A stretch of 64,000 nt of DNA from the NCBI GenBank assembly GCA_017428495.1, contig JAFRQS010000032.1, positions 148-64,147 on the forward strand, read 5' to 3'. Below are positions 37,654 through 40,994 of the stretch, piece after piece (the first letter of the stretch is position 1; each line of letters opens with the position of its first letter). Below the pieces are notes generated by a model. It ran no database searches and had not been told where the DNA came from. It worked only from the letters and a program-made list of their open reading frames with translations. Origin of the DNA: Bacilli bacterium (GTDB lineage Bacteria > Bacillota_I > Bacilli_A > RF39 > UBA660). The position numbers and the translations under genes are program-made.

Positions 37654-38644
37654 TGTATTGACAGAAGAAATAATTAAAAAATTATTAGAGGATAATTACA
37701 ATTTGAAAGTAGCAAGTGTTGAAAGAATAAATAGAGGTAGTGCAAATATATACAATATAGATAATAAGTATATATTGAAAGAATTTAGTAGTGATAGGGA
37801 AGTTTCTTCTATAGAAAAAGAATATAATGTAATAAAACATCTTGATAATAAAGGATTAAAAGTACCTACATATATTGAAACAAAATATGGTAATCCATAT
37901 ATAATATATGAAGGTAGAATAATAATACTTCAAGTGTATCTAGAAGGATATGCAATGCCAAATAATACAGGAGATTATGCTAAAACAATTGAATCAGCAA
38001 CTATATTGGGTAAATTAACTAAAGCATTAGAAGATTATGAATTAGATAGTACTTATAATGATTATCCATCAAAAGAGGCATTAGAAGAAGGCATTGTTAA
38101 ATTAAGTGATTTAATTAATAAGATTAAAGATGATAATCCATATAAAGATAAAATAATATCCGATTTAAAAAGAAGAATAGAAATATCAAAAGAACTATTA
38201 GATTTTAATTTTGAAGATATTAAAAAAGTAACATTAAAAATATGTCATGGAGATTATTCTGTACAACAATTAATATATAATGATAATGAGGAAACTGCAA
38301 TAATAGATTTTGAAACAGTAAGAAAAATGCCAATAGATTGGGAAATAATAAGAAGTTATAGTTATATAGATAAAGAATGTAAAGATGGAGTATTTAATTT
38401 AAATACATTTATTGATTATGTTAAAGAAGTAAAGAAATATATTAAATTAACAAAAAAAGATTTAAAATATATGCCATACATCTATATATTTCAATTAGTA
38501 TCAAGTACATTTGGTTATAAACAATATAATAATGATTATTCTAAAACGTCTTTATTAGATTTTGCATTCTTTAGAACTAATCTATGTAATTACTTATATG
38601 ATAATTTAGAACTAATATCAAAAGAATTATTAAATATAAAATAA
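37640..38644 (+). CDS. APH/choline-kinase-like phosphotransferase
   Basis: YILKE, CHGDY, AIIDFE; paralog of 48138-49109. Confidence 0.85.
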   Translation: MLENSVLTEEIIKKLLEDNYNLKVASVERINRGSANIYNIDNKYILKEFSSDREVSSIEKEYNVIKHLDNKGLKVPTYIETKYGNPYIIYEGRIIILQVYLEGYAMPNNTGDYAKTIESATILGKLTKALEDYELDSTYNDYPSKEALEEGIVKLSDLINKIKDDNPYKDKIISDLKRRIEISKELLDFNFEDIKKVTLKICHGDYSVQQLIYNDNEETAIIDFETVRKMPIDWEIIRSYSYIDKECKDGVFNLNTFIDYVKEVKKYIKLTKKDLKYMPYIYIFQLVSSTFGYKQYNNDYSKTSLLDFAFFRTNLCNYLYDNLELISKELLNIK

Positions 38645-38760
38645 TAAACACAAATAAATTATTTGTGTTTTTATTATTAATAATTGAGAAAATAAGATTT
38701 TGATAGTATAATAAAAATATAAGATAGGAGTGTATTATGAAAAATAGAAAAGCATTTACA
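38596..38760 (+). repeat. Direct repeat copy 1 (kinase 3' end, terminator, promoter, pilin start)
   Basis: Near-identical to 40051-40217. Confidence 0.9.
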
Positions 38761-40020
38761 ATAGTTGAATTATTAGCAGTAATAGTAATATTAGCAATAA
38801 TATTAATAATAGCTGTACCACAGATAATGAATGCAATAAAAATAGCTAAATTAAAGAGTATAGAAGGTAGTGCAAGATTAATAGCAAAGAATGCAGAAGA
38901 AGATTATTATTCACAAAAATTGATAAATAAAAGATATAATGCAACAAGTATACCATGCTCTGATGTGGCAAAATTAAGCGATGATTATTCGAGTTGTAGT
39001 ATTACATATGATAATAGTGGAACGGCAACAGTAACATTAAAGGGAGCATCAGGTGGTAAGTTTGATAAAATTAAATGTACAGGGACAAAAGCTAATATAA
39101 ATTGTAGTGAAATAACACCACTTCCAGGATACACTGATGCAGTAGAATTATTAACATCTAAAATAGGAACAGGTGGTCTAATAAAAGATGATCATGATGA
39201 ATTAAGATATCAAGGAGAGACAGTAGATAATTATGTAACATTTAATGATGAAGTAGCAAAATGGAGAATAGTAGGATTATTTAACGTTGATGGAGAACAA
39301 AGAGTAAAATTGGTAAGAAAAGATTCAATATGGAATAATTACTCATGGGATACAAGTGATTCATCTGTAAATAGGGGAGAAGGAATAAATCAATGGGGAC
39401 CATCAGGAACATATGAAGGTGCAGATTTAATGAGAGAACTAAATGGAGATTATTTGAATTCAACACTATCAGTAGATGCAAATTGGTATGATGGATCGAA
39501 TAACTCATTAGGAAGTGAAAATTTCGATAAGAATTATGTATTAAAAGAGAGCGCACAAGAACTAATAGGAGATGCAACATGGTTCTTAGGCGGAGTAGCA
39601 TATAATAGTACAGTAACACTAGCAGATGCATATATTCAAGAAAGAGGAGAACAAGGAAAGATGTGTACACAAGGTGCAACATATTGTAATGATACAGTAA
39701 CTAGAACATACACATGGACTGGTAAAGTAGGATTAATATATTCAAGTGACTATGGGTATGCATCAGGAAATAGTAACTGTGCAACAAACATAGCATCGTA
39801 TAATCCGTATTGTGATACAAATTGGATGGGTGATTATGGATGGACAATTTCTCCTCAGCGTGACTCTAGCAGTGCCTTCTATGTGTGGAATGCGGATTCT
39901 CTTATGTACGGCGTCGAAGCATCCGTTCCTTGTCCCGTTCACCCATCAGTATATTTGATTTCAGGAGTTCAAATGAAAGGCTCTGGTACAACTGCTGATC
40001 CATATGTTTTTGCAGAATAA
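38737..40020 (+). CDS. Type IV pilin-like protein with C-terminal DUF6273/CLec-like domain
   Basis: KA-FTIVELLAVIVIL prepilin motif; WRIVG, VGLIYSSDY, WTISP, VHPSVYL..GSGT..DPY. Confidence 0.82.
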   Translation: MKNRKAFTIVELLAVIVILAIILIIAVPQIMNAIKIAKLKSIEGSARLIAKNAEEDYYSQKLINKRYNATSIPCSDVAKLSDDYSSCSITYDNSGTATVTLKGASGGKFDKIKCTGTKANINCSEITPLPGYTDAVELLTSKIGTGGLIKDDHDELRYQGETVDNYVTFNDEVAKWRIVGLFNVDGEQRVKLVRKDSIWNNYSWDTSDSSVNRGEGINQWGPSGTYEGADLMRELNGDYLNSTLSVDANWYDGSNNSLGSENFDKNYVLKESAQELIGDATWFLGGVAYNSTVTLADAYIQERGEQGKMCTQGATYCNDTVTRTYTWTGKVGLIYSSDYGYASGNSNCATNIASYNPYCDTNWMGDYGWTISPQRDSSSAFYVWNADSLMYGVEASVPCPVHPSVYLISGVQMKGSGTTADPYVFAE

Positions 40021-40050
40021 ACAGGTTTATTCCTGTTTTTATTTACAAAA

Positions 40051-40217
40051 ATATGATAATTTAGAACTAATATCAAAAGAATTATTAAATATAAAATAAA
40101 AAACACAAATAAATTATATTTGTGTTTTTATTATTAATAATTGAGAAAATGAGGTTTTAATAGTATAATAAAAATATAAGATAGGAGTGTATTATGAAAA
40201 ATAGAAAAGGATTTACA
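40051..40217 (+). repeat. Direct repeat copy 2
   Basis: Near-identical to 38596-38760, includes a copy of the last 49 nt of the upstream kinase gene. Confidence 0.9.
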
Positions 40218-40994
40218 TTAGTAGAATTATTAGCAGTAATAACAATATTATCAGTAATACTTATAATAGCGGTACCACAGATAATGAATACAATTAAAGT
40301 TTCAAAATTAGGGGCAATGGAAAGCAGTGCAAAAATAATAGCAAAAGATGCAGAAAAGAAATATTATATGAAGAAAATGGAAGATAAAAACTATGTGGCT
40401 GCTGGAATACCATGTACAGATATAACTAAAATGAGTAGTGATTATGGAAGTTGCACAATATCATATTCTAATAATGGAATAGCAACAGTAACATTAAAAG
40501 GTGCAACTGGTGGTAAATTTGATGGAATAACTTGTACAGGTACAAAAAATAATATGAGTTGTGTTGAAAGAGTTCCAGGTCCTCCAGTGTGGATATATGC
40601 ATATGGTAATATAACATCAGTAGATCAAGGAGTAGAAAATTATGCAGATTTAGATAAACAAATTTTTATAAGATTTAACAAAAATGATTTGAGTGAAAAA
40701 AATATATGTATAATGTATAAAAGTGCAGAAAGAAGTGGTGAACCTGCTTGTTTGGTATCTAAAGATACATATAATACAAGAAATAATGAAAATTCAGAAT
40801 GGAGTCAAATAGAAGCATTATTTGGTTCAAGTAACTGCGTTGAAGAAGTAAATTCTATAAGATGCTATGTTAGTTTACCAGAGTATTGGCAGTGTATTAC
40901 ATCTAGTAATAGTACAAGTTGTACCTTACTAAATCAAAATACAGAAGAAGAATGTAGTTTGAAATCTGATGGCACTGTTAGTTGTATTCAATAA
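40194..40994 (+). CDS. Type IV pilin-like protein with Cys-rich C-terminal domain
   Basis: KG-FTLVELLAVITIL prepilin motif; first ~125 aa homologous to 38737 gene, C-terminus unrelated to it. Confidence 0.85.
   Translation: MKNRKGFTLVELLAVITILSVILIIAVPQIMNTIKVSKLGAMESSAKIIAKDAEKKYYMKKMEDKNYVAAGIPCTDITKMSSDYGSCTISYSNNGIATVTLKGATGGKFDGITCTGTKNNMSCVERVPGPPVWIYAYGNITSVDQGVENYADLDKQIFIRFNKNDLSEKNICIMYKSAERSGEPACLVSKDTYNTRNNENSEWSQIEALFGSSNCVEEVNSIRCYVSLPEYWQCITSSNSTSCTLLNQNTEEECSLKSDGTVSCIQ

Follow-up and report, generated by a model that had tools for sequence, protein, structure and literature searches.

The 30 codons at 39856-39945 on the forward strand of the 64,000-nt stretch of DNA analysed here (the window), which encode residues 374-403 of a type IV pilin-like protein, can with fair probability be regarded as a variable region (VR) that was once written by a diversity-generating retroelement (DGR) and is now frozen. 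The segment and the stretch of homology to a 93-nt template repeat (TR) have the same extent; this TR belongs to a DGR on another contig (C4) of the same genome, and a DGR origin of the patch, as proposed in a preliminary description, is supported by this homology, by an asymmetry of the mismatches towards template adenines and by an imprint in codon usage. We infer that the window copy is the work of a DGR, that this writing came to an end, and that the protein is located in a pilus and binds a ligand there.

The gene (38737-40020, forward strand) is an open reading frame of 427 codons for a modular type IV pilin-like protein, and the segment lies between the peptides WTISP and VHPSVYL, as had been described. 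A promoter-like site (38684-38712, forward strand, 11 of 12 consensus matches) precedes it; the same promoter-like block is found again at 40141-40169 before the next pilin gene, and a nearly identical upstream block of about 130 nt is common to both genes. The second gene (40194-40994, forward strand, 266 amino acids) combines a pilin module (N_methyl 34 bits), 64% identical to that of the first, with a different, cysteine-rich C-terminal part. In the first gene, residues 1-26 (38737-38814, forward strand) form a prepilin-type leader with an N-terminal methylation motif, i.e., a class III signal peptide with cleavage/methylation motif and Glu5, which scores above the cut-offs of Pfam N_methyl (25.8 bits, cut-off 21.2) and TIGR02532 (18.8 bits, cut-off 16.3). 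The protein begins as a prepilin, as the assignment to type IV pilins had implied, and all equivalog pilin models stayed under their cut-offs on it. Position -1 of the predicted cleavage site, which is followed by F-T-I-V-E, is alanine and not glycine. The probable pilin module (residues 1-128; 38737-39120, forward strand) consists of a long alpha-1 helix, spanning residues 9-63 in the AlphaFold2 model of the 427-residue protein (mean pLDDT 88.6), and a small beta sheet. Its profile matches to pilin N-termini reach a best E of 6.4e-8, and residues 3-130 align in VIA-align with PilV, PilX, PilA and other pilins at Z 5.7-7.2, values that agree among more than 15 entries but stay under the Z of about 8 for which the tool asks. 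The genome also encodes a prepilin peptidase (Peptidase_A24, 58.7 bits, C3:146450-146779) and assembly ATPases (T2SSE, 424.8 and 98.2 bits, on contigs C21 and C25).

The remainder of the protein (residues 133-427; 39133-40017, forward strand) is an enlarged C-type-lectin-like head, assigned by its structural match to the N-terminal domain of the Thomasclavelia ramosa IgA peptidase (9qa6; VIA-align Z 15.6, rmsd 3.6, 221 aligned residues, 17% identity), a domain for which the available part of its publication (PMC12237041) describes a core of C-type lectin-like type that bears large decorations. Through this match the segment comes to lie near the C-terminal end of a C-type-lectin-like fold, which agrees with the CLec-like domain recognized earlier. 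Matches of the head to Lcl (8q4e, Z 5.1) and TvpA (2y3c, Z 4.7) are both weak, a Foldseek search with the whole model listed no lectin-fold DGR target, and no family in Pfam or NCBIfam matched the C-terminal domain. The hairpin past the stop codon, which had been noted together with the segment, does exist (40019-40038, forward strand, 7-bp stem and 6-nt loop; 40019-40048 with its T-run); it lies 74 nt downstream of the segment, folds weakly (z = -1.8) and is an ordinary terminator-like site, not a structure of DGR type.

The composition of the segment is the most conspicuous property of the gene. A recount of 39851-39950 gave A16, C30, G23 and T31, thus 53 G+C in 100 nt, and the 29 codons of 39856-39942 include 22 ending in a pyrimidine and ten ending in C, by which all earlier hand counts (53 G+C, 16 A, 22/29 and 10) were reproduced. 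The whole pilin gene has 39.7% A, 39.8% pyrimidine-ending and 5.9% C-ending codons, and genome-wide 70 of 123,194 stretches of 100 nt (step 10) contain 53 or more G+C. To the composition of this genome, with 25% G+C, the G+C-rich scaffold of the segment is foreign. When the 30 codons were resampled with residues kept and usage taken from 613 long ORFs, 1.25 C-ending codons were expected and ten observed, a number reached in none of 200,000 simulations; 10.7 A-ending codons were expected and three observed (P ~1e-4); and 35.6 ± 1.5 G+C were expected in 90 nt, with 48 observed (0 of 20,000 simulations). The flanks are normal in both respects (C-ending four against 3.1 expected, A-ending 27 against 23.5). 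The G+C-rich anomaly is therefore synonymous, and the amino-acid content does not explain it. An adenine-poor scaffold and NNY codons, as a past DGR product would leave them, thus exceed the prediction and are confined to the TR-homologous span.

One DGR was detected in the genome, on contig C4 and hence outside the window, with reverse transcriptase (RT), bAvd, a MutS-like ORF and TR, so that a DGR-type RT, an accessory gene and a TR are present in the same genome. The RT (364 amino acids, RVT_1 55.6 bits) adjoins bAvd (40.3 bits, cut-off 40) and contains an I-G-x-x-x-S-Q stretch, which we take to be a DGR hallmark. It is one of two RT matches in the genome, both on contigs other than the window's, which confirms the earlier statement that the window holds no RT; the other resembles retron RTs (St85 family model, 222 bits). 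The MutS-like ORF, of about 111 amino acids, lies between TR and avd. MutS_I is present in the Atlas clusters closest to it (30 of 30 matches, scores 0.96-0.97), and two of three homologues match Pfam MutS_I (best E 6.5e-5); the ORF of this genome found no match of its own in Pfam or NCBIfam, and a profile search of solved structures returned chance kinase matches only. The TR is AAY-rich and differs from the adjoining VR at 18 of 31 adenines and at none of 62 other bases. A GC-rich hairpin (-19.6 kcal/mol, z = -4.1) follows this target, and no hairpin of this kind was found at the window segment. A second target on contig C2 matches the same TR almost perfectly at non-adenine sites. The window pilin gene belongs to the family of the cognate target on C4; the prediction of a DGR elsewhere in the genome, with a homologous template rich in AAY, was borne out.

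Segment and C4 TR align over the full length of 39856-39945, with a deletion of one codon (3 nt) in the segment, and mismatches fall on 22 of 31 adenine sites and 18 of 59 non-adenine sites (Fisher P 3e-4); an independent nucleotide alignment gave identical counts. Identities at non-adenine sites number 41, compared with 33.6 ± 2.5 (maximum 40) in 300 codon shuffles. Third positions are likewise similar (A3 C10 G5 T12 in the segment, A0 C11 G7 T13 in the TR), and seven of the ten C-ending codons of the segment face C-ending TR codons in a hand count. The asymmetry towards adenines alone would also follow from a gain of adenines by the TR later than the split of the copies, against which only the synonymous imprint speaks. 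A BLASTN comparison with the full genome had been suggested to find a template next to a DGR RT and differing almost only at adenines: the first part was borne out, the second was not, as the segment differs at other bases, too.

The 18 non-adenine differences comprise eight G<->C transversions, seven GC->AT, two AT->GC and one T->A change (hand count). Since they are rich in G<->C exchanges and the C-ending codons number ten against 11 in the TR, a pattern unlike AT-biased decay, the sequences suggest that a different, unseen TR probably wrote the window copy, and quite recently. Such recent writing would leave room for an unseen TR that is still active. The segment might thus be an active target of a second TR outside the assembly (in the unassembled 7%, a collapsed repeat or an unbinned phage or plasmid), served by its own RT or by the C4 RT in trans, a reading that we consider unlikely. 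It is favoured by the nearly undecayed share of C-ending codons (10/30 against 11/31 in the TR, while about 1.3 would be expected at equilibrium), by scaffold differences dominated by G<->C transversions, which fit recent writing by a cousin TR, by the completeness of the assembly, which is 93%, and its fragmentation at these genes, and by the trans-acting DGRs on remote targets that are documented in the available parts of PMC5758913 and bioRxiv 10.1101/2023.09.22.558884. Against it stand the retron-like nature of the only other RT, the occurrence of the same allele in four studies, and the outcome of all searches for another TR, in the own assembly, in loci of relatives, in genome, viral and metagenome collections and among phages and plasmids. 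An adenine-tolerant ungapped scan of the own assembly (33 contigs, with many paralogues at contig ends) gave as best non-self match 14 non-adenine mismatches in 90 positions, in A-rich DNA, a scan whose power is low when pieces are short. Local alignment that tolerated adenine differences, against loci of family relatives (20 with an RT and 30 TR-like), yielded no better TR, the best match being always the own C4 TR, in its first half only. A 3'-scaffold IUPAC pattern, which presumes which codons vary, matched nine times in genome_contigs, never in viral_contigs and seven times in metagenome_contigs, always by chance in unrelated DNA of 51-72% G+C; the JGI set did not return the organism itself. 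A blastn search with 39800-40020 against phage and plasmid collections gave no match.

The allele of the segment recurs in single contigs from four independent gut metagenome studies, which differ from the window at 0 of 414 nt (X2), 4 of 286 (X4), 4 of 376 (X8) and 9 of 506 (X11); inside the segment, zero to three differences are listed, at positions 39898, 39900 and 39935 only. As evidence for fixation this invariance is weak, because the cognate C4-type VR is likewise identical in seven database sequences and contigs, on which the comparison was based, lose minor variants. The same allele is also found in a protein with another N-terminal half (P0002), and the P0121-type allele was not found in eight genus representatives with the query used. 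A dip in depth in the bin 39863-39939, with joints such as 39851 to 39946, was rejected as variation and is read as paralogue contigs aligning by their conserved flanks.

A history without any DGR, in which the patch is merely VR-like and arose by recombination with a homologue of higher G+C or by selection on mRNA or protein, is quite improbable. What speaks for it is the resemblance of several database proteins (P0002, P0003/P0123, P0139, P0140) to mosaics of the paralogues, which suggests recombination within the pilin family, assembly chimeras being possible as well. Against it, no similar DNA was found in phage and plasmid collections, the patch coincides with the TR-homologous span, its third positions follow the profile of the TR, its mismatches are concentrated at TR adenines, and the same columns are imprinted in other members of the family. 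The pilin module occurs in 19 tblastn matches at 64% identity or more in this genome, and 14 paralogues (17 tblastn matches without a 15-residue fragment on C21 and without C2:32890 and C11:12880, both at 32-35% identity) could be analysed for the imprint. In the VR columns nine of the 14 show an excess of C-ending codons (P < 0.05) and 11 a deficit of A-ending ones, whereas in the flanks the A-ending deficit is lacking throughout and the C-ending excess never falls under P 0.03. The strength of the imprint is graded among the paralogues, most of which have a conserved -10 and leader upstream; the flanks of the window gene resemble those of C2 most (0.84), followed by C4 (0.80), with 0.66-0.80 to the other paralogues.

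Very improbable, finally, is that the C4 DGR still diversifies the segment from a distance, as the remote DGR target proposed in the preliminary description, imperfect homology being tolerated, and that the segment forms a hypervariable tip: RT, Avd and TR look intact and the 5' halves of TR and segment have a 36-nt stretch with only four non-adenine mismatches in common, but cDNA templated by this TR cannot yield 18 non-adenine mismatches and a codon deletion, the 3' half, where homing begins, is worse (12 of 30 non-adenine sites mismatched, against 6 of 29 in the 5' half) and ends without a homing sequence common to the TR (6 of the last 15 nt identical, hand count), published remote targets were accepted with A-to-N differences only, as far as the available part of PMC5758913 goes, and the contigs of the four studies display no hypervariability. 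By these mismatches, the deletion and the diverged 3' end, the segment does not look like a current target of the C4 DGR.

For the preferred reading, a former VR that is now frozen, the following course can be proposed. cDNA would have been made from an AAY-rich template with its adenines randomised, leaving NNY codons in the segment, the remaining positions being taken over from a scaffold poor in adenine and rich in G+C. By its leader and alpha-1 helix the protein would become part of a type IV filament, on which the enlarged lectin-like head may expose what was once the variable loop for binding. The window copy would have lost, or never had, the match to the C4 TR including the 3' homing end, and for want of this match it would now evolve like any other gene, as one of at least nine pilin paralogues with a graded imprint, each presumably with its own promoter. 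A more far-reaching version is tentative and in our judgement rather doubtful: the DGR would feed a heritable repertoire, in which lectin-like tips are written, stored through duplication or recombination as paralogues with promoters of their own, then freeze and fade, with at least nine copies of different ages and the window copy stemming from a second, since-lost template lineage. If true, this would amount to a write-then-archive library of adhesins on type IV pili in a gut bacterium with a genome of 1.2 Mb.

DGRs are usually scored as pairs of TR and VR, active or absent. Here, one small genome holds within one surface-protein family the whole life cycle side by side, with a perfect pair on C4, a near-perfect remote copy on C2, several copies, including the window gene, with the synonymous imprint only, and faded copies, which raises the testable idea that DGR products can become fixed and build up a repertoire of adhesins spread over many genes. 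A codon-usage test limited to TR-homologous columns offers a means to spot former DGR targets from sequence alone; a VR-like composition, however striking, is no proof of ongoing hypermutation.

Among known systems, the family may be likened to pilE/pilS of Neisseria, with which it presumably has in common many pilin paralogues, conserved flanks around a variable segment and possible mosaics. It differs in that the copies have their own promoter-like site and leader and are therefore not silent cassettes, and in that their variable segments bear the imprint of a retroelement. With remote DGR targets, such as the multiple ones of Treponema denticola and those surveyed by Wu et al. (PMC5758913), as presented in the part of that paper available, the window gene shares a chromosomal position far from the RT, a C-type-lectin-like domain with the VR at its C-terminal end, NNY codons facing AAY and a homologous TR in the genome; those targets keep the 3' homing sequence and differ at adenines only, whereas the segment has mismatches at other bases, an indel and a 3' end that has diverged. 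Going by its sequence, the segment is either a target no longer in use or one whose TR has been lost, and such a kind is not listed there. The cassette on C4, itself outside the window, resembles the MSL-type cassettes of the same source in its MutS-like accessory gene and avd, with the difference that its MutS-like ORF has no Pfam match of its own.

On the side of the protein, the best structural match, the 9qa6 domain, has a lectin-like core similar to Legionella Lcl; it belongs to a sortase-anchored metallopeptidase, for which the available part of PMC12237041 describes no link to DGRs. PilB and PilC of the monoderm Streptococcus sanguinis, according to the accessible portions of PMC8179133 and PMC9934059, similarly join a pilin module to a bulky C-terminal functional module, and by analogy the window pilin may serve in adhesion as a minor or tip subunit; here, the graft is a C-type-lectin-like domain of about 295 residues with a DGR-type loop, and many copies exist in the genome. 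At the adhesive tips of the type V pili of Bacteroides a DGR diversifies the binding surface of a pilus-borne adhesin, likewise in a gut bacterium (bioRxiv 10.1101/2024.11.15.621889, in the part available), whereas here a type IV prepilin module with N-methylation motif is found in a small-genome Bacilli MAG and the window copy does not appear to be undergoing diversification. Until now, pilins that start with a type IV prepilin leader and are diversified by a DGR have been a scarce survey-table entry, 'G-type pilin', in what is available of PMC11661182; in the present case, pilin diversification of DGR type is met with in an uncultured, reduced-genome lineage of the ruminant gut, in which attachment is probably central.

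The 100 nt from 39851 to 39950 comprise 16 A, 30 C, 23 G and 31 T, and from 39856 to 39942 a pyrimidine ends 22 of 29 codons and C ends ten; these counts of the preliminary description were all exact on recount. Over the whole pilin gene (38737-40020) A amounts to 39.7% and C-ending codons to only 5.9%. The long contigs of the 1.235-Mb assembly have 25-26% G+C, 70 of 123,194 100-nt windows across it hold at least 53 G+C, and the segment is among those with at least 50, as are its counterparts in four paralogues. When the 30 residues encoded by 39856-39945 were held fixed and codons were sampled at the frequencies found in 613 long ORFs, 1.25 C-ending codons were expected and ten seen (0 of 200,000 simulations reached this value), 10.7 A-ending codons were expected and three seen (P about 1e-4), and 35.6 +/- 1.5 G+C among the 90 bases were expected and 48 seen (0 of 20,000 simulations). 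The compositional anomaly is synonymous. The hairpin reported after the stop codon is present, as an ordinary terminator-like site.

Both reverse transcriptase (RT) genes of the assembly lie on other contigs, C4 and C27, and the window was correctly described as lacking one. The C4 RT belongs to a diversity-generating retroelement (DGR), whose complete cassette (L011 4299-7030 = C4:38298-41029, minus strand) consists, on one strand and in this order, of the 3' end of a paralogous pilin-head target gene that is truncated where the contig stops, a GC-rich hairpin (-19.6 kcal/mol, z = -4.1), a 112-aa ORF matching no family, a 93-nt AAY-rich template repeat (TR), a 111-aa MutS-domain-I-like ORF between TR and avd (L011 5700-6032, minus strand), bAvd and the 364-aa RT. 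This TR and the neighbouring variable region (VR) are mismatched at 18 of the 31 TR adenines and agree at all 62 other bases. The cassette order is conserved in two relatives (G008 and G058), and of 120 other genomes sampled from the family, 36 have an RT homologue. The 111-aa ORF, with PF01624 in 30 of its 30 nearest Atlas clusters and Pfam MutS_I matched by two of three homologues but not by the copy itself, appears to fall in the accessory class that Wu et al. call 'MSL'. The C27 RT (L012 3468-5498 = C27:31467-33497, minus strand) is retron-like, reaching 222 bits with the St85 family model (cut-off 235), and its neighbour is an ORF of 288 aa resembling P-loop ATPases; this RT probably belongs to a defence retron and has no relation to the DGR.

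Apart from one missing codon, the window segment aligns with the C4 TR from end to end, and mismatches affect 22 of the 31 TR adenines and 18 of the 59 non-adenine bases (Fisher P 3e-4; codon and free nucleotide alignments agree). Its 41 non-adenine identities compare with 33.6 +/- 2.5, maximum 40, after 300 shuffles of its codons. Despite the mismatches, its third-position profile (A3 C10 G5 T12) copies that of the TR (A0 C11 G7 T13), unlike the flanks in the same gene (A27 C4 G9 T32). The proposed DGR origin of the patch is supported by TR homology, adenine asymmetry and synonymous imprint. A template differing almost only at adenines had been anticipated beside a DGR RT; a homologous TR does stand there on C4, but its differences are not so confined. 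Non-adenine mismatches number 6 of 29 in the 5' half and 12 of 30 in the 3' half, at which end DGR homing begins, and by hand count 6 of the last 15 bases match. The present form of the C4 TR is unlikely to have written the segment. Neutral, AT-biased decay of a product of this TR should have left another pattern: the 18 non-adenine differences include, by hand count, eight G<->C transversions, two AT-to-GC and only seven GC-to-AT changes, and C-ending codons have scarcely decayed (10 against 11 in the TR). From this pattern, together with the slight loss of C-ending codons, we infer that a cousin template, now lost or unseen, wrote the segment.

A second copy close to the C4 TR is found on contig C2, at a locus without DGR genes (VR at L002 about 1576-1673 = C2:73773-73870, minus strand). 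Compared with the TR it is mismatched at 13 adenines and three other bases, has gained 3 nt by insertion and departs by one base at the 3' end; a plain terminator and then an ABC-transporter ATPase gene follow downstream, and upstream of the VR the C2 and C4 copies are identical as far as both contig ends. It would be either a young relic or a target for some other TR allele of slightly different sequence.

With the last 102 residues as query, tblastn found 17 places in the assembly: ten complete ORFs of 400-465 aa with a prepilin motif at the start, four truncated by contig ends and three without a prepilin start (ORFs of 278 and 356 aa and a fragment of 15 aa). The pilin module alone (38737-39120 and 40194-40577 in the window) has 31 tblastn matches, 19 of which reach at least 64% identity, a strong expansion for a genome of 1.2 Mb. 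Since several copies lie at contig ends (C4, C2, C20, C25, C26, C27 and C6), the family is seen as a main cause of assembly breaks. The codon test was extended to TR-homologous columns and flanks of 14 paralogues, the 15-aa fragment (C21) and two distant members at 32-35% identity (C2:32890, C11:12880) being dropped. C-ending codons were in significant excess in nine (seen/expected: C2, 12/1.4; C4, 11/1.3; window, 10/1.3; C29:76852, 8/1.4; C26, 7/1.2; C8, 7/1.3; C3:163989, 5/1.1; C25, 5/1.4; C27:80993, 5/1.6) and A-ending codons depleted in 11, and the flanks were normal in all paralogues tested. Divergence from the TR scaffold grows in roughly the same order as the C-ending excess fades, and the flanks of the window gene are nearest to C2 (0.84), then C4 (0.80). 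On the simplest reading, the series would represent VRs written at different times and then drifting.

Twenty metagenome runs from 13 studies, on the guts of sheep, bovines and other animals, contain the gene or part of it. For four studies, contigs were compared at 80% likeness, and in each study one contig spans the segment and unique flank, with 0 differences from the window over 414 nt (X2), 4 over 286 nt (X4), 4 over 376 nt (X8) and 9 over 506 nt (X11). Within the segment the best-supported differences fall at three sites, 39898 (T>G, two runs), 39900 (T>C, one run) and 39935 (C>A, one run), one of the three opposite a TR adenine; as only the best-supported differences are listed, the contig totals set the upper bounds. 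This constancy speaks only weakly against the suggested hypervariability, because contigs mask minor variants and the cognate C4-type VR is itself identical in 7 database sequences. As the TR scaffold is kept and AAY-coded residues are changed among the C4 type, the C2 type and the database proteins P0003, P0123 and P0004/P0132, several alleles have been written by the DGR element in nature. The last ~240 residues of P0002 are identical to the window protein and its N-terminal half is different. Apparent paralogue mosaics among P0002, P0003/P0123, P0139 and P0140 join the window N-terminal half to a C4/C2-type tail with a true TR-scaffold VR (on 8.5- and 20-kb contigs) or to a C25-type tail, or a C4:9986-type N-terminus to the window tail; they reflect either real pilin-gene recombination or chimeric short-read assembly. 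About fifty further proteins (P0053-P0103) are almost all 437 aa long and all about 42% identical to the query. Most form singleton clusters at 90% and are encoded on long contigs of other assemblies; they may represent rapidly varying orthologues in a related, more abundant organism.

Taken together, the segment is rather probably a VR written by a DGR and now frozen. That it is still rewritten from an unseen TR, a reading which the cousin template would suit, seems unlikely: a matching TR was not found in the assembly (93% complete), at 50 loci of relatives, by scaffold pattern in three public contig collections or in phage and plasmid collections. A patch without any DGR history is quite improbable beside the TR homology and codon imprint. 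Least credible, and very improbable, is the C4 TR as active template: surveys accept non-adjacent targets only if the differences are A-to-N (accessible text of PMC5758913), and by this rule the segment, with its non-adenine mismatches, does not count among the targets of the resident TR; the current remote target first proposed is not supported.

The pilin-like gene (38737-40020, plus strand) encodes 427 residues, of which 1-26 fit the prepilin cleavage/methylation motif with profile scores above curated cut-offs. In an AlphaFold2 model (61-sequence alignment, pLDDT 88.6), a long helix (9-63) and small sheet align with many type IV pilins (Z 5.7-7.2), and residues 133-427 with the N-terminal domain of Thomasclavelia ramosa IgA peptidase (Z 15.6, rmsd 3.6, 221 residues aligned), described as a C-type lectin-like core with large decorations, resembling Legionella Lcl (accessible text of PMC12237041). 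Direct matches of the head to Lcl (Z 5.1) and a Treponema variable protein (Z 4.7) are both weak. The genome also encodes a prepilin peptidase and two T2SSE-type ATPases, and with motif and Z scores these are in line with a type IV pilin with lectin-like head on sequence and fold level. By analogy with modular pilins (PMC8179133, in part), the protein would be located in the filament. The adjacent gene (40194-40994) encodes a 266-aa pilin-like protein in which this pilin module carries another head, its C-terminal ~140 residues being cysteine-rich and without family match. The ~130-nt blocks upstream of both genes (38607-38736 and 40064-40193) are nearly identical and contain a terminator-like hairpin, promoter-like site, leader and ribosome-binding site; -10 and leader are also kept in other paralogues. 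This conservation suggests that each pilin copy is expressed separately.

In DGRs the TR transcript is reverse-transcribed, bases are misincorporated at its adenines and the cDNA replaces the VR. Here, adenine-mutagenised cDNA would replace the pilin-head VR, as seen only in the C4 TR/VR pattern, and the written gene would be copied by duplication or recombination, at which the database mosaics hint. A copy losing its 3' match to the TR could no longer be rewritten and would retain a fixed specificity, as the mismatches indicate for the window copy. Each copy would be driven by its own promoter, to judge from promoter-like sites and the conserved leader, and its product, processed by prepilin peptidase, would join a type IV filament and bind a ligand by its lectin-like head.

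A graded set of former VRs in one expanded pilin family, a codon-usage test as their detector and the idea of an archive, in which DGR products are kept as fixed copies, were not found in the searched literature on DGRs and pilins; supplementary tables of surveys may list such proteins. The segment itself is probably a relic, and across the genome a useful and somewhat unexpected form of DGR biology emerges, whose component parts are already known. Lectin-fold variable proteins belong to these parts. As far as the accessible texts go, so do the MutS-like accessory genes and the remote targets of DGRs (PMC5758913), Bacteroides pilus adhesins diversified by DGR (bioRxiv 10.1101/2024.11.15.621889) and modular type IV pilins (PMC8179133), and 'G-type pilin' is among the scarce VR-holding domains of one survey (PMC11661182).
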